A stretch of DNA of 62,638 bases, the filler included, from Sluysia triapertura (Eukaryota): the NCBI GenBank assembly GCA_046118255.1. It is 4 parts of 4 records of this genome, joined end to end, with 100 filler letters (N's around TTAATTAATTAA, not from the genome) between each part and the next. Parts side by side here need not be neighbours in the genome. Positions count along the whole stretch, not along the records: positions 12,217 to 30,280 come from JBJNIA010182391.1; 3 more parts are not named here. One strand, given 5' to 3'. Made by a program: the position numbers and the translations under genes. Below are positions 1,583-30,280 of this stretch, piece by piece (position 1 is the stretch's first letter; every line of letters starts with the position of its first letter). Under the pieces are notes generated by a model. The model ran no database searches, was not told the DNA's origin, and saw only the letters and a list, made by a program, of their open reading frames with translations.

Positions 1583-2461
1583 ATGAGTGAAGATTCAGAC
1601 AACGTCAAAGTTGTTGTTCGTTGTCGACCATTAAATGAAAAAGAATTAGTTCAAGGATGTCGGATGGCAGTTGAGGTTTTCTTGTTAATGATTTTTTGAT
1701 TTATTGGTTAAATTTAGGTTAATGAAGTTCAAGGCAGTATATCAATATCTAGTAAAAATGATAGAAACGAAGGTGTGAAACAGTTTACGTTTGATTTTGT
1801 GTTCGGACCCAGTAGCAAACAAGTTGATATATATAATAAAGTTGCTAGAAAAATTACAGATTCAGTTTTAACGGGATACAATGGTAGACTCAAATTTTTT
1901 TATTTTAATATTTTAGGAACGATTTTTGCGTATGGTCAAACTGGCACTGGAAAGACTTTCACTATGGAAGGTGTACGGGATGTTCCAGAACTAAGAGGTA
2001 TTATACCAAATTCATTTGCGCACATATTTGGAGCAATTGCAAAAGCTGAAGATAATGTCCGCTTTTTAGTTCGAGTTTCTTATTTAGAAATATACAACGA
2101 AGAAGTAATTAAAAATAATTTTTTTAATCTGTTAAGGTTCGCGATTTATTGGGAAAAGATCAAACTCAACGATTAGAAGTTAAAGAACGACCAGATATAG
2201 GAGTTTATGTTAAAGATTTATCAACTTTTGTTGTTCATGGAGCAGATGAAATGGATAAATTAATGACTATTGGAAATAAGAATAGTTAGATTTATTCTTA
2301 ATGATAAAAACATGTATTCAGGAGTAACTGGAGCTACAAACATGAATGAACACAGTTCACGTTCTCATGCAATTTTTACTGTAACAGTTGAATGTAGTGA
2401 AACTTTTAGTGACGGCCAAACGACATTTAGACAAGGAAAACTTCATTTAGTCGATTTAGCT
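1583..2461 (+). CDS. KIF3A: Kinesin-2 motor subunit KIF3A, 5' part. Exons 1583-1675, 1718-1883, 1917-2104, 2137-2284, 2322-2461; downstream exons not found in this contig
   Basis: Spliced translation [21 protein letters not shown]...[38 protein letters not shown]...[29 protein letters not shown]...[11 protein letters not shown]...GKLHLVDLA closely follows KIF3A. GT-AG introns are 42, 33, 32 and 37 nt, and a GT donor follows at 2462. Confidence 0.93.
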
Positions 2462-2789
2462 GTATGTTTGAGTTAATTATTAAAAGGTTTCTAATAATTA
2501 ATAAACTCGCAATACATTATTTAGATTTCATAACCAATGTCATTTGAGTGCCAATAAAAATCTTTGTGATTAAAATAACATTCTTTAAATTCAGCTATTG
2601 ACAACTTATTCGGTTCTTTATTTATTTTAAACGAATTACGACTTACTGACATTTGAACCGTAATAGTAAAAATATTGAATCTTTATCATTATGAGTTTAT
2701 TCACATTTTTTCACAAGTAAAGTTTTACATCACTGTCTTTACGTTTATGCGTATTTCCAAATTAAGTTTAGAATTATCTTTAACAATTA

Positions 2790-3600
2790 TGTCATAATAA
2801 TATTCATTATTCATAAATTTCATTCATAATAATATTCATTATTCATAAATTTCATTCATAATAATATTCATAAATTTCATAATAATATTTATAAAAGTAA
2901 TAACATTGGCATTTTAATTCATTTATTTAGTATTTTAATAAATTTAGTATTTTAATTTAATAAATTTCATAAATTTAAAAAAAAATAATAACATTAGTAT
3001 TTTAATTTCATAAATTTTAACATTAGTAATTTAGTATTTTAATTTAATATTGATATTTTAATAGTAGTATTCATTTCGTAGATTTAGAAATAAAGCAATA
3101 AATAAATTATTATTGTTATTATTATTTATTATTAATGTGATTCATGTTCTAAATATTTCAATTATTATTATTGTTATTAGAACAGTAAAATTATATTAAT
3201 AGAATTGTTCAATCTGTTAAGATTTATTATTATTATTATTGTTATTATTAATATTGTAAAATTATTAATAGAATTGTAACCAATTAAAATTATTACTGTT
3301 TATTGTATAGAATTAAACTATTTTGTAAAATTTATATTTAGAAAATTATAGAAAAAATTGTAATTATTTAGAACAAAATTTTTACTTTTATTATAGAATT
3401 AAATTTAACTATTTGAAAAGTGGAATATAAAAAGAGAGACAGTAATCATAAAAAACATTACTTGTGGATCAATCTACCATATTGTGATCGAGTTATCAAT
3501 CATTGATCGAATTACCATTTCTTGTCGCCAGTCATTCTTCGTTGATCGAGTTATACCATATTGCAAGTTATTTTCAATCCGTATAATAATAAAGGAATTT
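2790..3600. repeat. Dispersed repeat in the KIF3A intron, including a 32-nt tandem unit at 2793-2890; inverted copy at about 45420-46170
   Basis: 3418-3560 (AAGTGGAAT..TAAAAAGAGAGAC..TAATCATA..TTGTGGA.CAA.CTACCATATT..TGATCGAGTTA) matches the reverse complement of 45470-45622. Confidence 0.7.
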
Positions 3601-9600: not shown

Positions 9601-10739
9601 TTAGACTATAAATACTACGTTGTCATTGATTATTACATATTTATTGATTTTATGTTGAATTTTAGTCGGAATAATAATAACCAGAGTGTTTAAATAATTT
9701 TATTTTTAAATTAAATCAAAAAATTTCTAAATTAATATTTTATCAACGTTGGCAGCTAAAATATTTTAATAAAACTTTTAAAAATTAAATTTTGTTTAAG
9801 GTCAACCAAAAAAGATTATAAATATAAGTTAAAAAATTTCAAAAAACAATTTTTTACTCGTTTTGTTAATTTACTTCGATTAACTTTGGCATCCAAGTGG
9901 CCAGCATCCAACGTTGTTAAAATCATTAGTTTGCTATTATAAGCTTCGTATCGTAAGGTACATTTGTAAAATACCTACTTAAAATTCCAAATTTTTCTTA
10001 ACGTTTTTTTCTGGAACTGTTTAATAGCTCCATTTGTAAAATATTTCTTAAAATTGCAATTTTGAATTAACTTTTGTTAATTGCCATAAATTTATCATTT
10101 AATATTATCATATATTTGTTGTAACCAGTTAAATTTTTTTGTAATAAACCTTAGTGTCATAAACAAGACTTTTTTGATTTTATACCCTAAAATAAAAGAA
10201 ATTAGTATAAAAATTATTCGAATCTTTTAACAGATTCTACGTGTGGTGGCCAACCTTATCACTTAAAATTTTAATTCAACATTACACATTAAAATCACAT
10301 TTCATAACATCTCATATGTTACTATTACAGATTCATTAAAATTGATGACACTTTAAATCATTTTAAATTCACATTTTCACAAAATTAAAATCATAATCAA
10401 CATCCAAAATCATCAAATGTACATTTCAAAGTTAATTCAAAACATTTTGAGTTCACAATTCTTCAACATTCAAATCATTAATAATATTGAAAAACATTAA
10501 ATTTACATTTCAAAGTTATTGTAAAACATCTTTACAATCAAAATGGAATTGCTTTTAACATATTTAACTACGTTGTTATTTTTTTAGTAATGGATAAAAG
10601 CTGCTGAAAAGATAATTAGAATCAATGAGATGTAAAAGAATTTATAGATACGTAAAAGAAGCAGAAATTCATGTAATTTTTTTAAAACTTTTAAATAAAG
10701 ATATAAAGAAAATAAGTTTTATGTAAATTAACTTCATGT

Positions 10740-10743
<4 letters not shown>

Positions 10744-10780
<37 letters not shown>

Positions 10781-10857
10781 GTATTTTAATTTTATTTCAT
10801 TGTTATCAAATTTTATTATTATTATGCTCAATTTTATTATTATTATCAATTTAATTT

Positions 10858-10910
<53 letters not shown>
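10744..10910. repeat. (TTA)n microsatellites (10744-10780, 10859-10910)
   Basis: Read directly from the sequence. Confidence 0.95.
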
Positions 10911-11275
10911 GTTAAGGATTTTATTACTATTAATTAGATTTACTAACATTCACACTATTATCATTAATTAATGTTTTAATGACCATTATCATCACCATTT
11001 TGACCATTATTTCGGCTGTCAGTTTGGACAGCTACTTAATTTTTACAATAAAATCAGATTACATTTAACGTCAGCATAGTTATAGCTCAATAACTATTCG
11101 TAACAATTGAGTTGTATAACATTTGGATTTTTATAGGCCTTTTCATGAGAATAAAAATAGAAACAGAATTATTAGTAAAAAATTAAAATTCTCAAACAAA
11201 AAATTAATAGGAAAATTAGTTAAAATTAGTCAATTTACTGAAGTATAAATAAAATACAAGTTTATATACAACTCA

Positions 11276-11948
11276 TTGATGATCTTATTTATTTCATCTA
11301 TAATTATGTATTACAACAATATGTTTTCAATATCTATAACATCTTCAACCACTACAACTGTTTCCACCGCTATTTCTAGTGAGTGTGCACAAGCCACAAA
11401 GTTACTCGTAAAATTACCTACAAATACGAGATTTCAGAGACGTGAAAATAAACTCGGCATTTTGAATATATTAAATGATAATTCTTCTAACATTCTACAG
11501 AAATGTTATCCAGCAGATCATAACGATATCATCGAAAATAACATTAATTTAAATGATAAAGCAATGATGAACCACCTACCTAACATTCGAGTTCTTTGCA
11601 ACGATTCCAATTCAAATGAAAAAGGCAATACCATTAACAAAGAATAAGTTGTCTAATCACAGGTCTATGGCCCATTACATGAATGCATGTTCCCCTATAA
11701 CTATTGAACCATTTAAAGAATTGTTAAAGTATTCAGATTCTCATACGCCTAGTAACATGGTACCAAATTATGACAATGATATCCTTTGCAACAAGAGTGA
11801 CAAAGAGCTAATGCGTTTCAGAAATTTGCAAATTTCTTCAATAACTGACAAAAGAAATTTTCATCATAATGAATCTACACCGTTTAGAAATTTTATAAGA
11901 TGTAATGCGAGTAATGATGAATTTCCAATTATAATTAATTCAAATTAA
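11276..11948 (+). pseudogene. Frameshifted orphan ORF (11276-11647 plus 11616-11948), homologue of 27590-29179
   Basis: SSNILQ / YP..DIIENNINLNDKAMMNHL / KGN / TIEPF occur in the same order as SSNLMQ / FPCITDIISSN..ITLNDVNRVMNKL / KGN / TIEDF in the 529-aa ORF. Confidence 0.6.
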
Positions 11949-12116
11949 AGTGTGGAGGGCGTTACAATTTTGCTATATTTTTTAACTTTAATTTTTATGT
12001 TATTTTTACTTTTAAAAATATTTAACTTTAAGATAAATTTAATTACAATGAAATAATTAAATAATTCTAACTTAAAATTTAACAAAAAGGGCTTAAGGCC
12101 CAAAACAATTATAAAC

Positions 12117-12216: not shown

Positions 12217-12781
12217 CTTTATACAATATTTTTGAATCCACTGAAATACCACAAAAGAAAAAGTCATTTATTAGTAGACCTAAGTGCTACAAAGTACCCA
12301 GAATCATATTTTTTACGTTGAGTGGATCAATTATTTCATTTGGTATACTGTTCATATTTTTAGGGATTGACTGGTATTTTGATGCCTCAAAATATTCCAA
12401 ATTTGCTGACCCAGCTTCTCTAAAACAGTTTCGTACTTATCAAATTTTATGTTGTAGAACTCAAGCTGAATCATTGTGTTATTTACAGCAAATTTTGATG
12501 TTGAAATATTCTAAAGTGTTGTCAAATAGTACTTGTATCATTCGCATAGTAGCTGGATCTAATGCAAGAAAATAGATAAATTAAACAAGATACTAGAAAA
12601 TTGTGAAATCTTGAAAATAAAGATTTTTTACATCAGTCTGAAGCAAACGACATAATTCTAAATTTAAAAGATGCATCAACCAAACAATTCATAAATAAAA
12701 TTAAAATTTATCAAAGAATTCTCAACTAATAAATAAAAAGTCAATAATAACTTAAAACCTATTTTAATTAGTTATCGTGAA

Positions 12782-13532
12782 ATGTCATCAAATGTTTTAA
12801 GTCATTATCAGTTGAAGGTGAGCGTTCTTGTCGAGACAGTATTCGTAAACAAAATGTACATTCTGCCATAACCAAAGAAGCTTGTCGTTATTTGATGAAT
12901 AATATGATGTTAAATGTTGAAGATTTGGGTAGAGAATGTATTATTAATTGTGCCAAAACAGCAATGTCCAGTAAACTTATCCAAGTCGATATAGATTTTT
13001 TTGTTAAGATGACAGTTGATGCAGCAATGGCTATAAAGGTTGACAAAAAAGATAGTAGTGCATCATATCCAATAGGTTCTATCAATGTTTCAAAGGCTTA
13101 TGATCGTTCAACGAGAGAAAGTGTCCTTTTAAATGGTTATGCACTTAATTGTACGATGGTAAGTTTTCAGACGCCAAAGTTAATTATAGATGCTCATATA
13201 GCATTGTTGGATTTTAATCTCCAGAAAACCAGATTGAAGTTAGGTGTTCAAATTTTAGTCAGTGATCCTGACAAATTCGTAAACGTGAAAGTGATATAAC
13301 TAAAGAACTAACAGAAAATATTAAAAGCTGGTGCTAATGTAATTTTGACTAGCGGTGGTATTGATGATCTATGTATGAAATACTTTGTCGAAAGTAAAAC
13401 AATGGCAGTACATCGTTGTAAAAAACTGATTTAAAACGAATTGCTAAACCAACTTGTGGCACATTATTATGTACTATGTCAATTTTAAAAAATGATGATG
13501 AAGTTTATGATCCATCTATGTTAGGTCATACT
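12782..13532 (+). pseudogene. TCP1: TCP1/CCT1 (chaperonin alpha) intronless pseudogene with an internal deletion of about 100 codons and frameshifts
   Basis: LSVEGERSCRDSIRKQNV runs directly into KEACRYL...LGRECIINCAKTAMSSKLI...GYALNC...LDFNLQKTRLKLGVQILVSDPDK...ILKAGANVILTSGGIDDLCMKYFVE...YDPSMLGH. Confidence 0.9.
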
Positions 13533-13832
13533 GATTTAGAACCTGGAACAATGGATTCTTTAAAATGTGTAATAGTCGGTAATTTATTTCGACCTTATAA
13601 TTCAATATTTGCAAGTACTGAAGCTGGAAACAATTGAGCTCAAGAACTCTATACTGATAGAACAGAATTAATTGATAGTGTCATCGAAATTGTTCGTAAA
13701 GAATCAGAAAATTGTGAATGTTTGCAAGAATTTCAAGTAATGGATGCTCTCTGTGGCGGTATTGGTGTTGGAATGGAGACATTATTAATTAGCAAAATTG
13801 TAGAATAATTTCCAGATCGTATTGCGTGTACA
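13533..13832 (+). pseudogene. TUBB: Beta-tubulin fragment (about residues 67-166) fused in frame to the TCP1 pseudogene
   Basis: [91 protein letters not shown], with stops at 13635 and 13806. Confidence 0.92.
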
Positions 13833-14616
13833 AATATAGTTACAAAATTCATGGTGCAATCGCAAACAATACGTAAAACAGTGTCACATTATCGAGCTAG
13901 GTTTATTATTAACATTTTTCTTGTTTTATCGTTTTTATGAGTTTATAATCGATAAAATAACAAATTTTGTAGTGTTAAATTTCTTAACTGTTACAGGCCT
14001 TACGCCTATTTTGTTAAGCATAATTATATCAAAATTTAAGTATTTTTGTTTAAACCTAATTGAATTAAATTTAAAGTATTTTTGTTTATTTAATATTGTA
14101 AACGATTTTCAAAAAAACTAAAACTAAATAAAAATAATAGTATAGTTTGTAAACTAAAATATCTATTGCCCTTAAATAAATTAAATAAATAATTCTTAAA
14201 TTAAAAAGTAACCATAATTAAGGTGAATCTTTTAGGAATTTGGATACAAGAGAGTTCTTTTCTAGAATTAAGTATTTAGACTAGGAAAGAGATTAACCTT
14301 TGAAGAGAATAAAAGGTTTATAGGTGATTAATATAAGAAACTTAGAACATAAGCTAATTTTCATAAAAAACCATCAGAAGTTTTCTAAGTATAATAGACT
14401 GTAGATTCATAGTTTTGTTATTAATTACAAGAAAAGAGTACATATTTGCATATATTTCAATTACAAGAAAAACCTTTTTTCTTTAAGTTTACGTGCTGTT
14501 GCTTACGCGTACTTCTCAGGATTAAAACGTACATCGTAAGCGGACCTTTAGAATAAAGTAATCAATTTGCAAAGTATAAGAAAATACCATTTTAAGATAT
14601 TACGTTTTTTGTTTAT

Positions 14617-14695
14617 TGTTACAGAAGTGCCCTCTTTACGACATAAGATGCTTACTGTAGTCAGACCCTGCTCAATTTTCTATTTTGCTGCAGGT
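14617..14695 (+). repeat. Conserved 70-80 nt dispersed motif (other copies at about 15330-15390 and 61441-61510)
   Basis: GTTACAGAAG.GCC...TACG...TAAGA.G.TTACTGTA....CCCTGCTCAA....TATTTTGC is shared with 61441; the CTGTAA..CCTGCTCAATTTT.ATTTTGC..CAGGTT part is shared with 15350. Confidence 0.7.
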
Positions 14696-15729
14696 TTAGC
14701 TTTAAGTATCAGTAAAAACCACAGCATATATATAATTTCTCAGCAAGTCGCCATATTGAATTTCTCTTTCACAATTAGTAAATTGATTTAAATTAAAATT
14801 TTTATATTTTAAAATTATTTTTTTTAATATTATTTATTTAAAATTATACTAAATTTTAAATATATTTCTTTTTTAAATTATTTTTAATTTAATATTTAAT
14901 GTTTAAAATTATTTATACTAAAAATTTTAAATATATTTCTTACAAATATTTACTTTTTACTAAATTATTTTTACATTAAATATAAGTATCTGAACAAAAT
15001 AAAAATATTTATAAAACATTAAAAAATAAAACAAATTAAGGATAAAACAACTCCAACAATACCTAAAAAGGTTTTAATTATAAAATATTAATTTTTTCTC
15101 TACTCTACATACTATAATTTTATGTTATATTTAGTAATAAATTTTCAAGACTATTTATTAAATTTGTAATTGAACTCATTTTAAATTTTGATAGCAAAGT
15201 ATTTGTAAAATTGAAATTATTATTTGGATTAAATTACCTCAAACTATCGATTTAAGTTGTTAAGCATAATACTCTCTAACTACTGCAGAATAAGGATAAC
15301 TACTAAAGTGGTTAAAAACGATTATTTTGTAAACGTCATAAGTCCTTTCCTGTAACGTGATCCTGCTCAATTTTATTTTGCCTCAGGTTATGAGTTGAGA
15401 ATACCGCAGCAAAAATATAGTAGGAAAACACATTGCACAATATGCTATAATCTTATACCAATGCCTCGCTATAAAGAAGGTTCAAGATAGTCAAAAGTAC
15501 TTCCTAACCAACTTCATCATAATTTCTTAGGAAGATTCAGAGTTGATAAGATCGACCTTTTAATTCCAATTACAGAAATTCTTCATAATTTGTTAATAAA
15601 AAGCGCTATGCCACTGAGAAGTTCAGAAATAACTTTTGTAAAAGTTTACGTGCTCACTATAACTCTTAACATTAGCATTAATAGAACAATGCGTTAAATG
15701 TGATGTACTTAATATATGAACACACTTAT

Positions 15730-17404
15730 TCAAAATATAATGTCATAAAGTTTGTCAATTACCATTTTTTTAGTTTGAATTATTGCGATTGTAATAATAA
15801 ATAATATGGTGGATGGTCTAGTACAATGTTTTTGGGAGTAATATTCCGGATAACCTTTTATGGAGGTTATTGATATATTATGAGTTGTACAATGATATTT
15901 TGAAAAGAAATTAAATAACTGTGTAAGTTTGGTTCTTCTTGAGGGTTTATTGTCATTAAAAACATTTATTTTTAAACTTCCATTTGTTATATATCGAGTG
16001 TAATTGAGTGATGAATTTATTACTTGAAAAACTGTTTCTAAAACCAGTTCTGGTTTAGCATAACAATTCATATGTGCATAAAACATAACATTTAACTTTA
16101 CAAAATCTTTTTTTAATTTTATTACTTGTTTAATTTCAGTTATCTTATAGATTATACTAGATTTTTTTGATTTAATAACAGAATAGAATGTCTTTAAGTA
16201 TCTATTAAGATTTAACTCAACTTTATCTAGCAAATTTAATGTTAATTTTACCAACTTAGTACTGGTACAGTGAAACATAATTAAAAAAAGCTATAGTGAA
16301 AATTTATTATACAACTAAGATTTATAATTAAGTTAAATTGCCGAAATGATTTATTTATTAGCATCATCCGTGAGACTCCGACCTCATGTTTACTGGGAAC
16401 TTCTCGCTGCAGATCATCGATCCAGAGTGATTGATTGTTAACTAAAAAATAATTATATAGATATACAAATTTAAAACTAACATAAAAAAGTATAACTAAA
16501 ATCGGATAAATAAACTCAATAGATGGTATGATGTCTCCATTTAATAACAAAATATAATATTGATTTTTCACAATAACACGAACAGATAGAAACAATTCAT
16601 AAAGCAGTAATCTACATTGAATAGAAAAGTTCGTGGAAACTGTTTGAGTACTATTATTGGTGCATAATGTAATTAGCTTTTTATAATTGAATAAATACAT
16701 ACTGAAATTCGCTATTGCTTCGTTGATCAAACTTAAGTCTCCTACACTCTCTTCAATTACTTCATAAACAGTCTTGTAAATTTAATCTCCTTGATTTAAT
16801 CGTTGACAATAAACTTTTATTAGACAGGTTAGTTCCTTGTAAAAACTAAATCATCATATTCGAATCCATGAAAAAAATTAATGTACTTTCTGTCGACAGT
16901 AAAGTGATTTGTTTGAAAATCTGAACTAATCAAAGGTTCTAACGGTAATTTGTTAACTAAAGTAAACAAAAACTTTTTTACAATTGAATTTGTATAGCGA
17001 ATCCTCTCATTTTCCACCACTTTGTAAAGATCATTGGTATATCTTACAATAAAACTGTGTGAGAAATTATATGGTTCTGTAAGCATCATTTTTGCCAACG
17101 AGCCAACTTGTATCCATTTTATACACTGAGCACATGGGCACCAAATAAACAATGAGTTATTAGAATTGAAATCATTGATTGAACTGTTATCATATGACTT
17201 CGTAATCCATTCTTTTTTTAAATTTATTATTTCTTGGCATTGTATTTTATAATCGCAGGATGATATAACTTCATTCATAAAAATACATTTCGGATTGAAA
17301 TGAAAACATTCTTTGATAAAGTACGAAAGATGTATTGGTAAAGTTTTCATTAGTTTTACACCTTTAAAATCAAAATCTGGTAATGAATTATTGATAGTGA
17401 ACAT
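15730..17404 (-). pseudogene. Orphan ORF of about 560 codons broken into three pieces (17404-16829, 16730-16281, 16278-15730)
   Basis: Each piece aligns in order to the 29179-26800 ORF chain (PC..IxxxxG...ML; DIIPSIEFI; LINKS..Q..LSCIIN; P..VLET; NDNKP). Confidence 0.7.
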
Positions 17405-17532
17405 AAAAATTATTTTTTAAAATCTCAGCAAAATATTTTTAGTAATACAATTTTTATTTTGTATAAAACTTTGTTAATTGTGGTTCTGTCTACTTTTAAT
17501 TGTGTCTGTCTTGTAAGTGTTTCTGTTAGACT

Positions 17533-17694
17533 GCCCAATCAGAGTGTTTTTTAAAAATATTGAGAATGATATGCACTCTGATTGGGCGATGATAAAATTG
17601 AATTTTGACGATTGATAACAAAACAACCACCGTCATCAGTGGTGTCATTCTAATGACATTTTTAATCAGTGTAAATAGTACTGATGACGGCGGT
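17533..17694. promoter_or_regulatory. Two inverted repeats in the leader: a 14-bp CCAAT-containing IR and a 15-bp IR with a nested palindrome
   Basis: GCCCAATCAGAGTG (17533) pairs with CACTCTGATTGGGC (17574). ACCACCGTCATCAGT (17626) pairs with ACTGATGACGGCGGT (17680) and encloses TGTCATTCTAATGACA. Confidence 0.75.
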
Positions 17695-20520
17695 AACTAG
17701 TTTAGTGGTTTTACACAAAATTATTAAAATTATATTATATAATTGATAGCAATAATAATAATAACGACAATAAGATTACTGTTATCATTATTATTGTCAA
17801 GAAATAAAAATAAAAATAAAATACATAAATATTCCTTTTACTAAAAACCACAAGATTCTTTCATTCTAACATATTAGCAAAAATAAAAAGGAATAAAACG
17901 AATGTTATACTGTGAAGGAACAACCGTGGCTAAGTGTACAATGTATCATTTGTAGCTGTTGCTTCACGGTATGATAATGAAGTCTTTAAAGTTATCTTAA
18001 ATTTGTTTTTGAAAGATGTAATGGTTTAAGTTGTTAGTGAAATGAAGAATGTTGGAATGATTTATTAAAACTTATTGAAGATTTGTAATTGGAAAACAAG
18101 ATTTATGCATTGGATAGAATGGTTTGAAATGCTTAATGAAAAGTTGAAGTTGTTTTAATTTTAAATAACGATTACAAAATAAGTCTTAGTACTTTATAAT
18201 GTAATTACTAGTAATTGTTAATGATGATTATGTGTATGTGAAATGGATTTAAGTTGGTGTGGTTGATTAAGGGTTCAGATGTAAATGATCTCTGTTTCTG
18301 AGGTAATTGTTAGCGTTGTTTGATAATGCTATTATATTTATGATTTGTGAAGTTTATATTGTAATTGTGATTTGTTTGTTGAAATATCTAGTGAATGAAT
18401 GTTGTGAATTATTTGAGGTTAAATGTCAAAGTTTGTTATGCTATGGATGGTTAAAAATGTTAATTGAATTGTTGATATGTGTGAGTTGATGAGGTGTTAT
18501 AAATATCGAATGTTATTTTATGATGTTTGTGTTGGTGAAGTTCGATAGCAAAAAATGTGATTATTTTGAAAATTGGATATGGGTGAAATTTAATTTGTGA
18601 ATAATGAATTTAAAATTTTGATTAATTTTAAGTTATGAGTGTTGGCCACTACAACCTAAACCAATACGTAATGCACAGAATATAGAATTGGTCATAACTT
18701 GTGCATATCGTTACCTCATAGAAGTTAGGTAACGACTGTGGAAAAATATGGTTAACAGTATTAAAACGAAATGACAATATTCAAGCTGTCTGGAGAGAAA
18801 TCTTATTCCCTATAAAAAGTTCAAAAGTTCTAAAGACGGTCAAGTAAACTGATCCTTTGGAAAAGACAACACAAAAAATACTCAAAAACAAATATGAGTT
18901 AGTTTTTTGATTTTAAGTCAAGCCTTTTTGGGTTTATTTATATAATCATTAAGATAATTCATTGATATTATTTCAATCATTCTCAGTTGTGGGAATTTAT
19001 AAAATTTCAGGGTGCAATTTTAGCCTATATCACCACTCAAACTCACAAATAAATGCATTAAAGAAAGTTTTGTGTATATTATTTTTATTTTATAATAAAA
19101 ACTCAATAATTATACGAATACAGAATCTCAATATATTTTTAAATATCTCAATGAATTCACAAATATTAATTTATAATAATACGCCTCTAATATATATTTA
19201 ACAACAATATGCCTTCAGTATAAAATTTTAACATACTTTTTAATTATCGAAATTAATAACTGTTCTTTAATTCTCAATATACGAATTTAAAGTTATAAAT
19301 CACTGACTATAAAATTCTAAATCTACAAAAAATCCAGGACGATAACACAATAAATGTTGTAACTCATGTTAACAATAAAGTTTAACTAACTTTAACACAA
19401 TAAAACCTCTTTTTTGAACTTTAGTCAATTGTAGAATAATAAACTCCAATCACATTGTTTTCCGCAAATGGATTCAGGTAGCCTTACTAATGGATGTAAA
19501 GTTTAATAAGTCTTCTTCCAAATATTGTATACTCCGTTTATCTCTCCGACTAACTTATTCTCTTTTTATTGCATAAATCTAATTGTTTAAAATTAATCAA
19601 ATACTAAGTTTATTTTCCATAGAAATCTTTTGTGTCATACGTTATGCGTCAGCCGTACGTCATACATCGATTTCAATAACTTATTTCAATTGGTATCTTC
19701 ATGAGCATTAGTTTAATATATTATTATTTGTAATATATTATTTGTACTTAAACACCACCACACTTATAAATTTAATTTTGGAATATAAAGACTAATTAAA
19801 ATAACTAATTTTTGCATTATCTGCGTCGACGAGATTCGCAACGTTTCATCATTAATAATATTTATAAAACTCATTATATACACTAATTCTAATATTATTT
19901 TATAAAGAGCAAACATTTTCCATTAAGTATTAAATAGACAAATTTTAATTAAATAATTTAACAAATGTATTTTAATATTTTTACAATTAAGACCTTATAA
20001 AAAGGTTATTTCTTCGCATTCTTTATTCTTATATTTTGATTCAAATATTTTTATACACTTATTTTGTCGTCACATTTCATTGTAATGTTTTATCTTAATC
20101 CCTCAATATTACCTATTTTATTTTTAAACCATGAGTTATAATCCTTGTGTTCCTCTTTACCTTTAATCAAATCCAAGATGTAATTGTTTCCTGTTCGACA
20201 GAGGCACCTAATTTTGTTTTAAAAAATGAAATTTGAATATAGTAATGATTTGATTTACTTTTTATATAATTAGATAAATCCATAAGTCCATAAATCCATA
20301 TTTAGATAAATTCATAAAATAATATTTACAAAATGTCATTATCTATTAAACATTATTGTTTAAATATTATAATTCTAGATCCTTTAAATATCTAAATATA
20401 TACAGTTTTTTATTGCATATATTTTTTAAATTATGAGTAACATTTTTATTTGCAATTTTGTCTAATTCACTGAATCTTTATTTTACATAGTTAATATAGA
20501 GTTATTATTTTAAATTAAAT

Positions 20521-23500
20521 ATGGGTAAGAAGCAGCATCAAAAGGATAAACTGTAATAAATTTTTTCTTGAATTTATTATACATTTGTAGTTGGTTAACA
20601 ACGACTGAATGGAAAACTATTTATGGAGGTAAGAAAGCTACCCAAAGTCAAAAGTACCATCGGCAACCTTTCAATTATTGCTCTTTAAAATACGTACCTA
20701 CGAAACAACCTTGTTGCACCAAAGAAGGAATTGTATTTGATTACGAAAACATTTTAAATTTTTTAAAGAAAAATAAAATTAATCCAATAACTGGGAAAGT
20801 ATTACAATTGTATTTTTTAATTTTTATAGAAATTAAAAGTAAAAGATTTAATTAGAATAAAATTTTTCAAAAATCTTGAAGATGAATTTCACTGTCCTGT
20901 TACATACAAACTTTTTAATGATTCTACAAAAATAGTTGTGGTTCCATCATCAGGAAATGTGTTTTCATATGACGTTAGTCTTGAATTTTAAGTTACAATA
21001 TTCATTTAGGGTTTGTTGGTAAATAATAAAAAAGGTGATGAATGGTTTGATCCAATATCAAATGAACAATTTCTTAAGAAAGATTTGATTGTAATTCAAG
21101 ATCCTGAAAATCCAGATCGCTTTAATATGGCTACGTTTTATAAAAAAACTGATGAAAATAGTTTGTTTTTGTAATTTTATTGTTACATTCATATTAGAAG
21201 GTGAAAATTCAACAACTCCAATATTAAAAATTACTGATCCATTAACAGCAGAAGTTATGAAAGAAATGCAAAATCAACGAAAAGTAATAATTATAAAAAA
21301 GTATTTAATCTTTTTTCAGTTAAAACAAGATTTAGAAGCATCAAAAACAGAAAATAATGACAAATCAAAAAAACAAGATACAAAAGATAAATTTAATGAA
21401 GCTAATTATTCAACTGGAATGGCAAGTGCTTCATTGACATCCACATCAGCTCCGTTGACGTATATAAACGAAACCGCTATTTTATCTGATGATATTGTTC
21501 GTTATAACAAAGTGAAAGAAAAAGGTTATGTTTCTCTAGTAACAAATTTCGGAAGAATAAATTTAGAATTATATTGTGATACTGTACCAAAAACGAGTGA
21601 TAATTTTATGAGATTGTGTAAATCGAAATATTACGATAATACCAAATTTCACCGTTTAATACGTCATTTTGTTGTAAGTTTTTTCATTAAAGTGACTAAT
21701 TTTGGAAAAAAAACATTTACTTTTGTAAATAAGCTATATAAACATTCTAATAATTTTTAAACGAAAACTTTTCAAGAAAAAGACACTTATTTTAATTGGA
21801 TAGTAGGTTCATCAAAAAATTGATATTTTCAGCTACAAGGCGGTGATCCAACTGGAACAGGAAATGGTGGTGAATCTTGCTGGGGAAAACCTTTTCCAGA
21901 TGAGTTTGTCAAAAAATACAGTCATGATTCAAGAGGTGTGTTATCGATGGCTAATTCAGGGCCTAATACAAACAAAAGTCAATTGTTAGTAATCGTTGTT
22001 ATTTCTGAATTGAATGTTTTAAATTTTTTAAGATGGCAGACGTGTATATATATGTTTTAAATTAAGCAGTCAAGATTTTGAATATTTTGAACTCTGATAA
22101 ATCTGAATCAGAAACATCGCCTAGGTAAAAACGAAAAAGATATTAAATTTAGAGAAGTTTATTTCCTAAAAAGGTACCGAATAATTATGAAATTATGTTG
22201 CTTTAAAATGGAATTAATAGTTACGATTCATAAATTAAGTACGTGGTAAAAACGTCATAATGAATATTATTAGTGATTGTCAGAGCAATTTTAATGGACA
22301 TTGTGTGACTCACGTTTTGTAATGAAAAGTTTCTTCTACTTTGCATGCACAAAAGATTATTATAGCGGGGCGTCTGTTATCAGACATCGTATTGGCCTCT
22401 TGTGCACGGGTTAGGTTGTCGATAGAGTGGAAACTACGTAGTTCAGGCAACTTCTTATTAATAATCTTGGAGTCTTTCACCAATGATTGCTATGCTGCAA
22501 AGAAAAAGACAAATAATCGTTGATTAGTATTCTTTTCTCTAATTCTTTTTTCATGTTCTCTAAACTCGAATCTAGAGAATTCAATTTCGATTATTTTTAA
22601 AGTAAATTTGAGTTCAAATTATGACCTTTATAATTATGTGTTACATTTATTTTACATTTTCTATATTTATATTGTTTCGAAATTAAATCTTAGTTTACTT
22701 TTTATTTAGTTTCATTGTTTTACGACCGGCTAAGCATTTGGATAATAAGCATACGATATTCGGACGTGTGGTTGGTGGAAATTCGATACTGAATGAAATC
22801 GAAGCTGTGGAATCTGATAATCAGGATAGACCTATTGTTAGTTTAACATATTTTTGAAATAATTTATATTTTTTGATTATTTTTGTACTTAATTAATAAT
22901 CGAAAATAATTAATGATCAATATCATACAGAGACTGTTTGAAAATACAAGGTGTCTCAAAAGTAACCGAAACGCAAACTTAAATAAAAATTAGATATCAA
23001 AAACGACAAGTTTAATAGGTGTATTTAGTATTCACAAAGTATTGAAGTGCCACTTTGAACTTCAATACAAGTACGACATTCATTCTGGCAAGTTTCCTCT
23101 GAAATTTGGCTCCATTCGTGCTGAATACTTTGTTTTAGTTGATCAATTGTCCTAGGCATTTTAGCATAATCTGTGTTCTTTAGAACTCCTCATAGAAAAA
23201 AATTAGGCGGTGTCAGATCCGGGAATCTGACAGACCATTCGATTGGTCCTCGGCGTCCATTCCTACGTCCAGGAAGTGTTTCATCAAGCCATTGTCGAAC
23301 ATCTTTGGTTCTCCATCTTGTTAAGAATGAAAAAATGCAGCTGCCATTATATCTCTGTTTTCGGACGACCTTCTTTAGGAACATTTGACACTTCTAGTTA
23401 CTTCAAATTTGGATACATGATTGAACATTGTCGGCATACTCGGTACAGGTGTTCTGAAGTTTGCTTCCCATTTTTCTTCAACATGCTTATAGCCAGTCCT

Positions 23501-26500
23501 TGCACAATAATTCTTAATAACGAAGATACGTTCTTTTAAATCTAAAGTCCTTGCTGCATTTTTAAGAATGAGGGTCCAACAGCGCAATAACAAAATCAGT
23601 AAGATTACGCAACAAAAGTCATTCCAAAGAATACTATTCGCAAAAGGAAATGAATGGTAGCGAAGATAACATAAAATGACAAAAGAAGAAATTACATTTG
23701 TCGTTTTTGATATCTAATTTTTATGTAAGTTTGAGGTTCGGTTACTCCTGGGACACTGTATTCTAAAAGCAGTTAATTAATGATGTAAAATGATTGGTGG
23801 AAATGATTGCCTCGATTTTAAACGAATAATGTAGTCCTTGTTACATCTTTGTCGTAATCAGTCGATATCGTCCCCGAAAGATTATTTCATTGATTTTTCG
23901 GCAGCGCTCATGAAGACATGTTTCAATTTCCTTTTTTACAAATGACAGTAAAATTAAACCGATGAACACTGGCATAAAAATACAGTATATTCTCTCAAAT
24001 TGGCCAAGCTAACAATTAATTTTATAAAAAATTTGAAAGAACACCAGGAACAGGAAATTTTATATTTTTTTAATAAGAAATAAAAATGGGTCCGTAATTC
24101 ACCTTTTTAATATATTCAAATTTAATTATAGATCATATTTCTCACCATATTTCACTAAAAACACTATACATCGTTTTTTCTTTAGGGGTATCTCAGAATT
24201 CTCATTATAAGCTTAAAAATTATATTAATTTTGAAATTTTTTTCAAATAGTTCTTTTCAAATTGGCCAAAAAATAAAAAAACCCAGGTTGGCCAATTTGA
24301 GAGAAATAACCGTATAGAAAATGATCGATTACATTTTTCTAAACCTAGTGGAAATGACTTTTCTAAAAAGGTAACTGCAAATTGTTCGATCAGATTATAA
24401 CTTTAACTTTGATATTCAAAATAAAATAGCATCAGGAATGATAAAATATTCAATTCATTATTTTTTCTAAGCTAGTTGATATTGTTTCAATTAAATATTA
24501 CTGACATGAATGTCTTTATTAGTTGTAGTTATACATCATCAAGTAATTCAATTGGAGAACGTTTTTAGATGATTCTTATGATTATTTGGATATTATTTTG
24601 AAAAAAAGTAATATGGATTTAGTATAGAGAATTAAATATTACAGTGGCACGGAGAATGCTTCAGCCATGGACCTTCAAGATAGTTTAGTGAAGGATCTAT
24701 GTATAGATGGATAATGTGCCCACACTAACATTCGACTGTATATTTGTGCTGTATATGCAAACAATTTATATTATAACACGAATAAAACACGAATAAACAC
24801 TATTACTTATTTATAGTTTCCGATTTTAGTAGACTTTTAATTACTATATTGCATTTAGTTAAATAAATTTCGTTTCAAAAGTATAGGACACACAGTATAC
24901 AAACTGTACAACGTATTGTACAAAATTAGTATTTTATTGAAGTTCATGAGTTTTTCAATACCTCTACACACATTTTTGTCACCGAATTAATGTATTTAGA
25001 CTTTTTATTTCAATCTTTTCCCAAGCATCAAATATTGTATTTTTTAACTCAAAAAGGGGAAAGTAATGCAAGTATTGCCAAAAAGTTAAACAGATCAAGA
25101 CATGTGATATTCAGTTATTTGGATAATAGTTACAAAAAGCAGTGAAAACAAATGGGCTGTCCTAAGGCACTTTCTAATCGTCTGAAAAATACAACATTGT
25201 CTTCAACTCGCACGATGTCAGATTTAGAGCTAAACTCCAGTAAACCAACAGTATGGAGAATATTAAAAAATATTTGTGAGGTGGAATTCATTAAAATGCT
25301 TGCTAAATCTCCACTTACTGATGCTCATAAAATAACAAGATAATATTCGCATATGAGCATAAATTTAATTTAGATGGTCCTGATGGTTATACATACTATT
25401 GGCATTATCTAAAGGATTCAAAAGAAGTATTTTCTAAGAGAATTTGTGGAGGATGATCAGTTATGGTATGGGTTGCCATAATTGATGATAAAAGCTAGCT
25501 TTACGTGTGGTTCCATCAACTCTTAATGGTGATAAGTACTATGGTAAAAGAAGCAGTAGTTCCATATGTCAAATTTGCAGAAAATATAAATGTCATCTTT
25601 CAGCAGGATAACACTCCTTGTCTTTGAAGATGACCTCAGTCCAATAGGAAATTATTCTACAGTCAAGGAAAACAGTATAACAATATATCTGAATTAAAAA
25701 TGCAATATTAGATGCTTGGGAAAAGATTGAAATAAAAAGTGTAAATACATTTATTAATTCGATGATAAAAATGTGTGTAGGGTTATTGAAAATACCTCAG
25801 GAACATCAATAAAATACTAATTTTGTACAATATGTTGTATAGTCTCTTAAATACAAAGTTCGTATAATGTGTGTCCTATTATACTTTTGAAACGAAATTT
25901 ACTTAACTAAATGCAATACAGTAATTAAAAGTATAAAAATTGGAAACTATAAATAAGTAACGGTTTTATTTATTAAATAGTATTGTTAATTTGTTATAAT
26001 ATAAATGTGTTTGTATATACACAGCAAAAATAGGAGTTGCAATATCTTCTAATAGTTCTCTTGTTTCTTTTTCGATCCAAATATTTGCTGAAATAAATAT
26101 TTAAATAGTGATATCGCTCGAAATCATCTTCTATGTTAATAAATCCAGATCTTGAAAAACTTCTTTACATTGATGTGGTCCTGTCATAATTCTTGATCCA
26201 CTATTTTCTCAACTATTTGTATCTCAAAATTCAAAAACATTAAGACGAAAATAACACAGAAAGATAACAATGACAATATTAATAATAAGTTCTTTTTTTG
26301 TAGTTAGTTATAAAAATAAATTTAATATTTGAGAACATAGATTTGGTTGCAGAAAGATGTACGATGACTGAATAAATATTTAAATGAATTATTTACATAA
26401 AAGTCGAATATCTTAAAATCGACTATTTTATCAAACAGGTATCTAATTGTAAAATGTTATAATAGAGGATATGAAAACTGTTTTAATATTTATTAAAACA

Positions 26501-26751
26501 TTCTTCTGATAAACGTAAATAAATAATACCAAATTAAAAATATCTTTTTTTATTTTTAGGAACCAATTGAAATAATATGTACAGAAATTTACGTAGATCC
26601 TTTTGAAAAAGCAGATGAAGAGATTCGAAAAGAGCGAGAAGAAATGTCGAAAGAGAAAATCGATGAAAGTTTATTGCCAAGAAATAAACAAGAGGAACAA
26701 GAATGGCGACAGAAACAAATCAAAGGCACTTTAAGAGGTTGGGTATATTGA
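20521..26751 (+). CDS. PPIL2: RING/U-box cyclophilin PPIL2 (Cyp60). Exons 20521-20552, 20591-20798, 20830-20973, 21010-21160, 21198-21283, 21320-21673, 21833-21984, 22710-22836, 26560-26751
   Basis: [18 protein letters not shown]...[11 protein letters not shown]...[14 protein letters not shown]...[28 protein letters not shown]...[24 protein letters not shown]...[15 protein letters not shown]...[15 protein letters not shown]...VDPFEKADE. All introns are GT-AG with consistent phases. Confidence 0.93.
22947..23758 (-). mobile_element. Internally deleted Tc1/mariner-superfamily transposon in PPIL2 intron 8
   Basis: TIRs of about 60 bp (..GTGTCTCAAAAGTAACCGAA..AAAAATTAGATATCAAAAACGACAA) are flanked by TA. 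Transposase remnants are [22 protein letters not shown] (N-terminal HTH) and [34 protein letters not shown] (WIGRRG-WPPRSPDLTPLDFFLWG type). Confidence 0.9.
23983..24312. mobile_element. MITE, 330 bp, with TA target duplication (pogo/Tc1-like ends)
   Basis: TA|CAGTATATTCTCTCAAATTGGCCAA ... TTGGCCAATTTGAGAGAAATAACCG|TA; extra CAAATTGGCCAA at 24258. Confidence 0.8.
24741..26032 (+). mobile_element. Degenerate Tc3-like transposon with inverted repeats of about 310-340 bp
   Basis: [36 protein letters not shown] and FQQDN match Tc3-type transposase; 24741-25050 is the reverse complement of 25690-26032. Confidence 0.88.
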
Positions 26752-27108
26752 TTAATTTAATATTTTTAATTGAAAAAATATTAATACAATAATGATATAT
26801 AATTATATAATTGGTTGTTGATAGAGTAAACAAAGGTTGTCCATTATTGCTTCCAATTTCTAGAGTTTGGAATTTTGTTAGATTATTCTGATCCTTAAAC
26901 TTGACTGGGTACACAATGTAAGAATATTGTATCTTGAATAAACATGAATTTGTAGTGACGGTTCGATAATACCCACCTCGATCTCTACACATGACAGGGC
27001 CCGATTATTATAGTTCGATTTGATTTTATTCGTAAAACGTTTTTATTTATGTTAATAACATTTTTATCTAATTTAAAAAACTTGTACTCTTTATAAGGTT
27101 TTACATCA

Positions 27109-27561
27109 TTATTTTTTTAAAACTTGCTTAAGGCACATCAAAATATTTGCGTTAACCCGGTGAGGGCGAATAAAATAAGAACACGTTGACATTATTTTAT
27201 TAAAATATAATTGCAGTACATCCCCAGTCGTTTCTAAAACACAAAACGGTATACTACTAAAAGGAAAAATCTTACATAGACAATATTTCCTCGCGGATAA
27301 GTTCACACCACGGTAATACTCCCTGTTTCTTTCGCTACAATCTGAATCACTGCTTCCGCCTTCGTTACACTTTAAATCACTGGGATCGAAGGTCTCTTTT
27401 TTACTTGCTTTATCAAATTTGAGTAGTGGTACAGCTCCACTAATACAACTCGTAACAATGCGCCCACTAGTGCAACTAATAACAAAACATTTACTAATAT
27501 AACTAATCTCAAGACCTCTATTAATGTAACTCATCTCAAAAGATCTGCTAATATAGCTCAT
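27109..27561 (-). CDS. Continuation (frameshifted) of the orphan protein, with 9-aa repeats
   Basis: Frame opens near 27645, overlapping the 529-aa ORF end. IPFCVLETTGDVLQLYFN matches KPELVLETVFQVINSSLN of 16278-15730. Confidence 0.55.
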   Translation of the reverse strand: MSYISRSFEMSYINRGLEISYISKCFVISCTSGRIVTSCISGAVPLLKFDKASKKETFDPSDLKCNEGGSSDSDCSERNREYYRGVNLSARKYCLCKIFPFSSIPFCVLETTGDVLQLYFNKIMSTCSYFIRPHRVNANILMCLKQVLKK

Positions 27562-27589
27562 CTCGAAACATCTATTAATATAACAAATT

Positions 27590-29179
27590 TCAAAAGATCT
27601 GATAACGTAATTGTAGAGAAGTTTTGGGTTTGTGGTTTCGTAAAATTAAGATGCTTAAGAGTTGTGGCACGCTTTGAGTGTTGTATATGTTTACTGAAGA
27701 TCGAAGTATTGAAGGATCGTTTAGAAAATTTTTAATCCTAATTTCAATGGCTATTACGTCATTAATAATTTCAACCTCGGTCTCGTCATCAAGTGATTTA
27801 ACTATCTGCATTCGGTGCTTGGTTCGATGAGAAGTTTTATTTAAACTATATTCGCTACCTAACTTGGTGCTTTTTTTATTTATGTTATTATAAGACTGGA
27901 GTGAATTTATTATTGCAACATTTATTTTACAATTTAAAGGTATACTATAATAATAAGACTGTTTATTAGACACATTTATTAAAACTTTGCTACTATTTAT
28001 AAAAAAAGAAATATTGACGGGACTCCGGTTCAACTGCATCTGCTTCACCACGGACCCGAGCATGTTGCGTGTAGATCTATGAATAAAATAATAAAAGATA
28101 CAATATATAACATAATTAGAATAAGTAATAATGTAGACTAATATAAATCTATTACTTGGTATGTAATCAATTGTTGCAAGATTTTCAACCAGCTTGGCGT
28201 TTCCAATATCGAATGACGTTACCAGATTGACTTTGATATCGTTGGTGCGCAGCATGATATTCATTGGGTAATGTACTTGTTGGTTTATGCTGATTACACG
28301 GTTTGGCTTGATCACATTGCTTTTAGTTCGCTTTGGATTATTTACATACTTTACATAGACCACATCGTCATACACTACCTTGAATACATTACTTTTAGTT
28401 CGTTTTGCATTATCTACATACTTTACGCTAATTACATCGTCGCGAACTGCTTTGAATACATTACCTTTAATTCGCTTTACCTTATTTACATGAGCCCGCC
28501 AGTCTGAATTCATTGTGTCGAACATAACAACCTTTATTAGATTTAAGACATGTCTATCTATCATAGCACGAGAAAACCAACCAGTAAAATCTTCTATAGT
28601 CGATGCTACTAAAGGAATTGTTATCATGTTACCGCTGCGAGTCAAATTATCGAAAGCATTTCCTTTTGAAAAATCGTCGTTGTGTACCGTATCCCAATCA
28701 ATGCGAAGCGATACAATTGAATTGTAAAATTGACCTGTGATTTCAAACTGAGTTTTAATTAAACCATCATCAATTTCTATAAGTTTGAAATCGCTATTTT
28801 CTAGATTAGCACTCAATTTGTTCATGACTCGATTGACGTCATTTAGAGTTATAAATTTTAATTTATCTCTATTTGAGCTGATAATATCAGTAATACAAGG
28901 GAATTCGTTTTGGTATTCGATTGTATTTGAAAGTAGATATTGATATTGCATTAAATTAGAACTACGAATCTTTATTCTGCGATCGTTTATTTTATCAACA
29001 TCCGACATTCTGGTAGAAAACACGACACCAGGTCTTTCATCAGCTGCATGAACATTTATTTTAGTTAAATAAAAAAAGGTTCTAGAATTAAACTGTAACA
29101 TAGAAGAATTGGATTGACCAATTTCCAACTGAATATAAGCTAAACATGGGCTTGTAAAATTACAACCTAGCTGAGACAT
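27590..29179 (-). CDS. 529-aa apparently intronless orphan protein with a 24-aa tandem repeat and a central hydrophobic segment
   Basis: A 1.6 kb open frame in very AT-rich DNA, with homologous broken copies at 15730-17404 and 11276-11948. No family recognised. Confidence 0.7.
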   Translation of the reverse strand: MSQLGCNFTSPCLAYIQLEIGQSNSSMLQFNSRTFFYLTKINVHAADERPGVVFSTRMSDVDKINDRRIKIRSSNLMQYQYLLSNTIEYQNEFPCITDIISSNRDKLKFITLNDVNRVMNKLSANLENSDFKLIEIDDGLIKTQFEITGQFYNSIVSLRIDWDTVHNDDFSKGNAFDNLTRSGNMITIPLVASTIEDFTGWFSRAMIDRHVLNLIKVVMFDTMNSDWRAHVNKVKRIKGNVFKAVRDDVISVKYVDNAKRTKSNVFKVVYDDVVYVKYVNNPKRTKSNVIKPNRVISINQQVHYPMNIMLRTNDIKVNLVTSFDIGNAKLVENLATIDYIPSNRFILVYIITYSNYVIYCIFYYFIHRSTRNMLGSVVKQMQLNRSPVNISFFINSSKVLINVSNKQSYYYSIPLNCKINVAIINSLQSYNNINKKSTKLGSEYSLNKTSHRTKHRMQIVKSLDDETEVEIINDVIAIEIRIKNFLNDPSILRSSVNIYNTQSVPQLLSILILRNHKPKTSLQLRYQIF

Positions 29180-29640
29180 TAACTTGTGATAGAATATGAA
29201 TTTTTTAAATTTTCTGAGTTATTCACTAATGGTTTCGTATTATTTTCGTTAATTGTTTTACATAAATTTATGGTATAATAATGGCTGCTGATTATTTTTA
29301 CAAATGGCTGCTTGATTTATTATTTTTAATTACTAATGGCTGGAGAATTTGGTTAACAAAGTAAGCCAATAGAAATCATTAATATTTTTAACTATTCATA
29401 GAGAGTAATCAATAAAAATCTAAGCTGTAATTTCAGATTTCCTCAATAAAGTTTCATGAACCAATCAAACATAGACCTCCCGCTTTGTATCATTGGAATT
29501 TTAAACGAAGCACACCCACACCCACTTAGCAAAACGCCCAATTATAATCGTTGATTTGAACAATTCAACACACACCACAAATCAACTCGAATTTAATTGT
29601 GACATTTGTGACTGTGTGCGAAATGATTATTTTGTAAGAA

Positions 29641-29696
29641 TCAATTATTACGTAAGAATGTGAATCGATGTTGAGAGATTCTTACGTAATAATTGA
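29641..29696. promoter_or_regulatory. Perfect 19-bp inverted repeat with an 18-nt loop in the copy 3 leader
   Basis: TCAATTATTACGTAAGAAT (29641) pairs with ATTCTTACGTAATAATTGA (29678). Confidence 0.8.
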
Positions 29697-30280
29697 GGTG
29701 TTATAACTGTGAATAATGACAAAATGAACATAATAATGTGATAACAAGTAATAGTAATAATGATTAATACTAATAGTGATAAATAAAAATAAAAGTGCAT
29801 ACTAAAAAGAATAATAATAATACTAATAGTAATAAAATAATTCGAAAGGAAATACATAAATCTTGATGTCTTTAAAAAAAACATGATCTTTTTCTAATCT
29901 TGAACTCTTATTCTAACATATAAAGTAATACGGGAAAGTAAAAGGAATAAAGTGGATAGGAGACTGTGAAGTGGTAATTGGAAATAGAATGTTAAAATTA
30001 GTTTATAAAAATTGGTTGAAACGGTTAATGGTTGGAGACAAGATTTATGCATTGAATTTAATAGTTGTGAATGTTTGTTGACTGGTTGAAGTTTTGAAAC
30101 GCTTTTTAAGAAGATTGGAGTTAATTTGATTTTTGGAGATTATTGCGAAATAATTTTGTATATGTTATGGTGTTATTGAAATGATTAAAGATGATGGGTA
30201 TGTTTGTGTAAGGTGGATTTTGAATGTTATTGTTGCTTGAAATTTTGGGTAGAATGGTATTGTTTCTGAAATGGTTAATA

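Follow-up and report, generated by a model that had tools for sequence, protein, structure and literature searches.

The window considered here is a stretch of 62,638 nucleotides from the genome of Sluysia triapertura (assembly GCA_046118255.1), in which an earlier note had described a shared leader upstream of three orphan open reading frames (ORFs), with copies at 17405-18653 (c1), 29180-30280 (c2) and 10242-11275 (c3). In our view, the leader probably makes up the conserved first half of a long terminal repeat (LTR) of 2-3.4 kb that belongs to a CsRn1-like Ty3/gypsy retrotransposon. On this reading, in which we place good though not complete confidence, the variable back half of the repeat is made up of intron-free pieces of host genes, which were likely captured by template switching and likely serve as an N-terminal extension of Gag. 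Four stretches are joined in the window, of which 1-12116 is contig C137949 and 12217-30280 is contig C182391, and the assembly from which it is drawn is AT-rich, with 619 Mb distributed over 263,945 contigs.

The leader and the repeat that contains it

The homology proposed between c1 and c2 is borne out by blastn, which aligns 250 bp at 66.8% identity (E 1.6e-16) and a further ~200 bp at 62-65%, all in collinear order. The similarity is also significant, with a local score of 72 compared to a maximum of 48 among 60 window-shuffled controls. The homology claimed between c1 and c3 stands only in part. The two have in common the terminus TGT(A/G)GTGGCCAAC..ACTTAAAATT, and a single profile, built from both families, picks up the termini of c1 and c3 (E 2.6e-32 and 7.2e-18). 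The leader bodies, however, are alike only marginally, with a local score of 51 against controls with a mean of 42 and a maximum of 59, and a global score of 56.5 against a control maximum of 46. To describe c3 as inverted relative to c1 is meaningless, since the two copies lie on separate contigs (1-12116 and 12217-30280). The sharp end that had been noticed is real: out of 4,396 candidates in the genome, 40 leader matches were scored, and 38 of them start within 10 bp of 18653 and have unrelated flanks.

The earlier note had further pictured terminus, leader and ORF as one mobile unit. The three do indeed move as a group and occur in many dispersed copies. However, together they make up a single LTR within a larger gypsy element, each ORF is a cargo of its own and not a member of one family (no tblastx match was obtained among the three), and the window copy extends beyond its ORF to a second defined end. 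A genome-wide search fixed both ends of c1, at 18653 and 15805, and the features of this copy are as follows.

15805..18653, minus strand: complete long LTR, a solo-like copy of 2,849 bp, TGTAGTGG...CCACCATA, with its ends taken from genome matches
18646..18653, minus strand: 5' integrase attachment end TGTAGTGG, matching the CsRN1 5' LTR motif TGTGGYG (as given in Table 3 of PMC3601003) and found immediately after GAGGGGGC-TGA in 33/35 contigs
17405..18645, minus strand: conserved leader with a C/A-rich tract, a (TAT)n tract, a hairpin and paired CCAAT boxes, common to LTRs with differing cargo
17630..17692, no strand assigned: inverted repeat in the leader, CCGTCATCAGT...ACTGATGACGG, from sequence inspection
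17535..17585, no strand assigned: inverted CCAAT box pair, CCAATCAGAG / CTCTGATTGG, read from the sequence
16829..17404, minus strand: cargo ORF of 191 aa, a decayed piece of the host-type KDM1B/LSD2 N-terminal zinc finger and zf-CW region, from a profile of 12 related ORFs
16281..16700, minus strand: continuation of the LTR ORF past a break, carrying a VSFKF.YL..YFLV segment; one 380-aa frame in L142
15805..16278, minus strand: C-terminal part of the LTR ORF, whose 5' LTR equivalents often read through the primer site
15846..15865, minus strand: likely remnant of an older LTR end and primer site, CCATA-AAA-GGTTATCCGG (compare CCATA-AAA-TGGTGTCAGG), from sequence inspection

Over bases 1-2849, c1 is 85.3% identical to the LTR of the copy L142, which is located after an integrase and a polypurine tract. 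The flanks of c1 itself have neither a polypurine tract before nor a primer site after, and a target duplication is absent as well. Long LTRs have in common a leader of ~1.2 kb and are divergent in content thereafter. The leader of c1 is likely the unique 3' region (U3), that is, the promoter part of the repeat, and the inverted CCAAT pair within it likely represents the promoter. In most long copies of the c1 lineage the two boxes are ~42 bp apart and fall around LTR position 1050-1200, and the pair is absent from copies of the c3 lineage. Further into the repeat, the VSFKF.YL..YFLV segment of c1 is also found behind myotubularin cargo and dynamin cargo, and the frame break that precedes 15805..16278 is present in both c1 and L142. 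A 333-bp in-frame gap of the window copy was considered as an intron and ruled out, as it has no GT-AG. Clearer remnants of the kind seen at 15846..15865 occur in L039, L186 and L233. In these three and in L036, an old LTR end and the start of a primer site are kept 30-50 bp inside the present 3' end of the LTR.

The 5' flanks of the first 64 termini contain no internal region in common, and the link to a retrotransposon body was given by L142, in which an integrase C-terminus and GGAGGGGGC-TGA precede the LTR. A junction search found the integrase tail adjoining the terminus in 35/35 contigs and the purine tract in 33 of them, and the c3-type terminus, TGTGGTGG, is also present among these contigs. 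Upstream of the terminus are encoded gag, protease, reverse transcriptase (RT), RNase H and integrase (integrase zinc finger and rve). The gag of L185, L203 and L193 harbors two CX2HX9CX3C (CHCC) motifs, and the nearest named RT relatives (RVT_1) are gypsy proteins from spiders, insects, tapeworms and flukes. In C29277, a whole element with an internal deletion, the two LTRs are 106 bp long and 93.5% alike, the primer site reads TGGTGTCAGGAGT and TCTTT is duplicated at the target.

Behind the primer site lies ORF0, a frame of ~2 kb that is rich in N, K, Q and T. The primer site or a near variant is found in 26 of the 30 ORF0 loci, which were collected by searching with the sequence behind the primer site, and the other four stop short of the position. 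Distances from the LTR start to the primer site are 62, 107, 153, 939, 2343 and 2924 bp, with no start detected elsewhere, and similarity between the lineages is confined to the final 10-20 bases upstream of the primer site, which are C/A-rich. One cargo type occurs at both LTR positions, after the polypurine tract in C16859 and before the primer site in L244 (71% over 1.9 kb), and myotubularin cargo is situated upstream of the primer site in L249. Because integrase and polypurine tract come before, primer site, ORF0, gag and pol come after, and cargo is found at both positions, the long unit, cargo included, can be assigned as the terminal repeat, and from this arrangement of sequences it is near certain that 15805-18653 is an LTR.

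The same junctions bear on a quite different idea, namely a non-autonomous DNA transposon, of a Pack-TIR, Ginger or Helitron-like kind and with inverted ends of 8 bp, which captures gene fragments and is sometimes nested in gypsy elements. The short inverted ends (TGTAGTGG / CCAC(C/T)ATA), the variable content and the mostly missing target duplications would suit such an element. However, the 5' end is fixed behind the polypurine tract in 33/35 contigs, the 3' end is fixed in position before the primer site, and host introns are removed from the cargo, all of which leaves hardly any probability for a DNA transposon or Helitron; this explanation was dropped as contradicted by the fixed junctions.

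With respect to priming, L358 carries a 31-bp transfer RNA (tRNA)-like 3' end with CCA that is complementary to the primer site. The primer may be tRNA-Leu; ARAGORN and Rfam assign no tRNA at this primer-complementary stretch and gave no name. The stretch L358:1490-1525 corresponds to the 3' half of a tRNA with an encoded CCA, and its opposite strand to an LTR-like end with an extended primer site, which is likely a trace of reverse transcription into the primer tRNA.

Host genes as the source of the cargo

The ORF of c1 is not an orphan, as had been thought, but is derived from KDM1B. A profile of 12 c1-type ORFs, the window ORF included, matches solely KDM1B/LSD2 chains in the PDB (E 5e-8), over the region of the zinc finger and CW domain. 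A single c1-type copy on its own also matches KDM1B/LSD2 in the PDB (E 0.001), and the window cargo ORF searched alone has no match. Further cargoes include myotubularin (E 6e-15), a dynamin N-domain (E 5e-10) and a CCCH finger. In addition, L354, a short, GC-richer contig with a composition unlike the rest, contains a well-conserved zf-CW exon and may be foreign DNA in the assembly.

Myotubularin cargo is represented by 157 matches, with 41-99% protein identity among 150 scored candidates, and is LTR-embedded wherever checked. The host myotubularin gene is found on C12727, with exons bounded by GT-AG, and the nearest matches of a host exon are flatworm proteins (monogenean and flukes, 47-49%), such that the host is likely a flatworm. 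Most cargo copies correspond to one host exon and match it to its borders, and two copies fuse the next two C12727 exons precisely across a 561-bp GT-AG intron. Another candidate for the parent exon, C63815 (L305), was rejected, being another LTR copy. The dynamin-like gene contains an 82-bp GT-AG intron in three leader-free loci, and the LTR copies are without it. The dynamin-like cargo spans from 44 bp before the host ATG to the end of exon 2, with ~4 bases in common at its 3' junction, which may possibly correspond to the short identity seen at the switch points of LTR-mediated retrocopies. Both of these cargoes continue in frame into the resident LTR frame that is common to the KDM1B type, and cargoes stop mid-gene, without poly(A). 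Overall, capture of messenger RNA (mRNA) into the LTR is well supported by these comparisons.

Intron loss alone does not name the enzyme, and the cargoes could have arisen as retrocopies made by long interspersed nuclear elements (LINEs) and inserted behind the promoter of existing solo LTRs, with the resulting chimeras spreading passively by duplication or gene conversion. The absence of target duplications from most solo-like copies is consistent with such a history. It is made very improbable by the 157 myotubularin matches and their LTR-embedded state, by cargoes that stop mid-gene, in frame with the resident LTR frame and with no poly(A), and by the presence of cargo LTRs at both element ends.

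Two further loci are of note in relation to the cargo. At L247:2605-3546 (minus strand), a cargo before the primer site has a weak galactosyltransferase match (E 0.0006, below the cut-off) and is possibly a further capture. At L337, around position 3300, an LTR of the TGTGGTGG lineage apparently lies within or just behind the dynamin-like host gene, 1 kb past exon 2.

Reading frame, capture and opposing evidence

The primer site can be read as the codons IKWCQEYKK, and this frame is open for at least 40 codons upstream in 13/23 copies compared with 2/23 in the second frame, which is the sole fair control since the third frame is closed by the conserved LTR end. ORF0 is open into gag over 246-459 codons in 3/16 gag loci, and L359 has 766 open codons, extending from upstream of the primer site to the start of gag. 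When copies are compared, the ratio of non-synonymous to synonymous change (dN/dS) is lowest in gag and pol (0.12-0.19), reaches 0.42 in ORF0 and is highest in the myotubularin and KDM1B cargoes (0.62-0.66), a sign of weak constraint on the cargo residues. Stops are as rare in the cargo as in gag-pol, with 6 in 1,954 codons versus 84-100 expected under neutral change, although this depletion is inflated by the copies being related and having been chosen by protein score. Because the LTR frame often crosses the primer site, ORF0 enters gag and cargo stops are depleted, the cargo is likely translated as an N-terminal extension of Gag.

The superantigen gene of mouse mammary tumour virus is a protein-coding frame within the U3 of the LTR; it is like the present frames in this position, but is a single fixed viral gene with no changing slot for host mRNA. 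The captured mRNA pieces in the LTR might similarly form a separate small U3 gene with its own internal promoter, in which case the genomic RNA would start near the primer site and no cargo-Gag fusion would be made. This would fit the conservation between lineages of just the last 10-20 bases before the primer site, as expected of a very short R-U5 (the repeat and unique 5' regions), as well as the frame break common to the subfamily of the window and the existence of integrated elements that have short LTRs without CCAAT boxes or cargo. Against it stand the 13/23 copies in which the LTR frame passes the primer site into ORF0, the continuation of ORF0 into gag, and the location of the sole promoter-like feature found, which precedes the cargo. 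We consider a separate U3 gene to be quite unlikely.

A route of capture can also be proposed. The RNA would start just behind the paired CCAAT boxes, which would make R/U5 1-2 kb long and place the cargo inside it. Minus-strand synthesis from the tRNA primer would then copy the whole of this long R/U5 before the first strand transfer, according to the general scheme outlined in PMC6894440. During this synthesis the RT would move onto a host mRNA packaged alongside, follow it almost to its 5' end and then return. Such a switch and return would place a 5' mRNA piece behind the promoter, as in the dynamin-like cargo. Gag would stay translatable, and the product would spread, only when the capture was in frame, and early jumps would give rise to the short LTRs (60-940 bp) that retain solely the last 10-20 bases.

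A bolder proposal, offered tentatively and as one that we lean against, is that the LTR acts as an exchangeable N-terminal module of Gag, refilled from host mRNAs behind the promoter, with translation passing across the primer site into ORF0 and Gag. Some captures, such as the histone-reading fingers of KDM1B, which are the most widespread cargo seen, might be kept as helpful to the element, for instance in tethering particles or integration to chromatin or in blunting silencing.

Several observations, in addition to the inflated stop count, weigh against the interpretation of the leader as part of a cargo-bearing LTR fused to Gag. Two matching long LTRs on one copy were not found among 20 gag-bearing regions and 18 primer-site contigs; such a copy would span ~11 kb, a length that most contigs do not reach. 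The upstream LTR of C16859 is damaged, carries a cargo different from that of the downstream LTR and resembles it at just 75% over 500 bp. A pair of direct terminal repeats flanked by a target duplication was seen in the short form only (C29277), where the duplication reads as 5 bp, or as 4 bp if the end is longer. When the ends were set manually, just 3/14 two-ended copies proved to have a perfect 5-bp target duplication and 1/14 one with a single mismatch, compared with 0/182 perfect among swapped-pair controls; an automatic scan gave 2/19 versus a control of 0.9%. Duplications of 5 bp are seen in L093, L086 and L050. The window copy itself has none (TAGGT versus TTATT). It would follow that many copies are recombinant or decayed, and the window copies are decayed solo or broken LTRs.

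With regard to the frame, no long open frame precedes the primer site in 10/23 copies, some of which are short LTRs. The same frame break interrupts both the window copy and L142, such that their subfamily spread without a single open LTR frame and was therefore probably mobilised in trans. The KDM1B parent was not found, a zf-CW search of the genome having returned four matches, none of which is the parent. For this reason exact intron loss is established for the myotubularin and dynamin-like cargoes and not for the KDM1B cargo of the window. The sources of the c2 and c3 cargoes, finally, were sought without success.

Comparison with known elements, and the rest of the window

The label CsRn1-like is used because the element is placed by its Gag motif, LTR ends and integrase tail. 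The clade, which includes CsRn1, PwRn1 and AgCR, is characterized in PMC2582038 by the Gag signature CX2HX9CX3C and LTR ends of TGT...AAA/ATA. Both are found here, along with the 5' motif TGTGGYG and the GPY/F integrase tail (PMC2582038, PMC3601003), the order protease, RT, RNase H and integrase, and a gag-pol overlap in another frame. As the clade is described in these sources, its LTRs are about 150-380 bp, its primer site is of the tRNA-Trp type TGGTGA(G/C)CCCGT and its target duplications are 4 bp, whereas here the LTRs reach 3.4 kb, the primer site is TGGTGTCAGGAGT and the duplication is 5 bp. A 2-kb ORF0 in frame with gag and protein-coding cargo inside the LTR further set the present element apart.

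LTR-mediated retroposition is a close parallel for the cargo. In the account of Tan et al. 2016 (PMC5131818), as in the element described here, pieces of spliced host mRNA are fused to an LTR element in sense, often in frame, and are able to spread. The exact removal of host introns that is a trait of those retrocopies is likewise seen in the myotubularin and dynamin-like cargoes. All Drosophila retrocopies in that account replaced internal ORFs. Here, in contrast, the cargo is found inside the LTR, bounded by the 5' terminus and the primer site in some copies and situated downstream of the polypurine tract in others, with gag-pol left in place; it has been exchanged repeatedly in one slot and has reached >100 diverged copies. 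The non-autonomous elements Cassandra, Helenus and Ajax (10.1101/2023.07.14.548913, PMC10886601) also harbor host-derived sequence within the LTR, but as described there this consists of small-RNA genes (5S-like) in elements with no coding body, whereas the present cargo is protein-coding, differs from lineage to lineage and sits in an element that has gag-pol. Rice Retrosat2, RIRE3 and RIRE8 are gypsy elements with LTRs >3 kb, for which a long R-U5 has been proposed and in which a fast-evolving ORF0 lies ahead of gag-pol. They are a plant lineage in which ORF0 is a separate frame, and the passages on them in PMC3485330 report no capture of host mRNA in the LTR. A literature search, with subscription journals and supplements outside its scope, found no description of repeated mRNA capture inside a gypsy LTR.

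Gene capture by animal LTR elements has been described as a rare replacement of internal genes, and here it is apparently recurrent and occurs within the LTR itself. Cargo held in an LTR would be copied to both ends and would persist in solo LTRs behind the promoter, with gag-pol not sacrificed. Capture of this kind would thus represent a high-volume route to promoter-ready chimeric genes, and would account for the many cassettes of leader plus variable cargo in this genome. The range of LTR lengths, from 60 bp to 3.4 kb, together with the primer-site remnants, could serve as a natural record of first-strand transfer errors. If the cargo-Gag fusion is true, two things would be new to retroelement biology, namely a primer-binding site situated in a coding frame and a Gag N-terminus that can be swapped.

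The other two LTRs of the window are made up as follows.

27006..30280, minus strand: second long LTR (c2), of a sister lineage, with its 5' end cut by the contig end and its 3' end taken from genome matches
27590-29179 (529 aa) and 27109-27561, minus strand: ORFs of the c2 LTR, within 27006..30280
10242..11950, plus strand: third LTR (c3), of the TGTGGTGG lineage and 3'-truncated; TGTGGTGG ends also follow the polypurine tract
11279-11647 and 11616-11948, plus strand: ORFs of the c3 LTR, whose fuller relatives finish in a CCCH zinc finger

A relative of c2 with 79% identity, C245576, begins with TGTAGTGGCCAAC some 340 bp further out. The c2 cargo has no match in Pfam or the PDB, and the Atlas gave just three hypothetical clusters at 0.91. 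On C212923, two identical 529-bp pieces of the 3' part of the c2 LTR (L117/L118) are found inverted on the one contig, which may be a fold-back artefact or a palindrome. For c3, searches for the source of the cargo gave nothing except the CCCH finger, and a RasGEF-like look received no support from them. In L376, a c3-type LTR of ~2.5 kb with a CCCH finger is followed by a degenerate primer site, ORF0 and gag. The c3 LTR of the window is interrupted at 11950-11967 by sequence ending GTGTGGAGGGCGTTACA, which resembles the end of another LTR family.

Elsewhere in the window, a repeated element end (TGTAACGTGATCCTGCTC...) is located at 15340-15400 (plus strand) and recurs 1 kb behind the LTR in L042. 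A TCP-1/cpn60 frame at 12895-13299 (plus strand; E 1e-17) is diverged in appearance and may be a decayed intronless piece of CCT1, and a cyclophilin-type frame at 21152-21760 (plus strand; E 1e-15) likely represents exons of a host gene. Two pairs of inverted repeats, 24741-25044/25696-26032 (80%, 340 bp) and 22933-23016/23691-23773 (85%, 85 bp), are possibly nested DNA-transposon ends.

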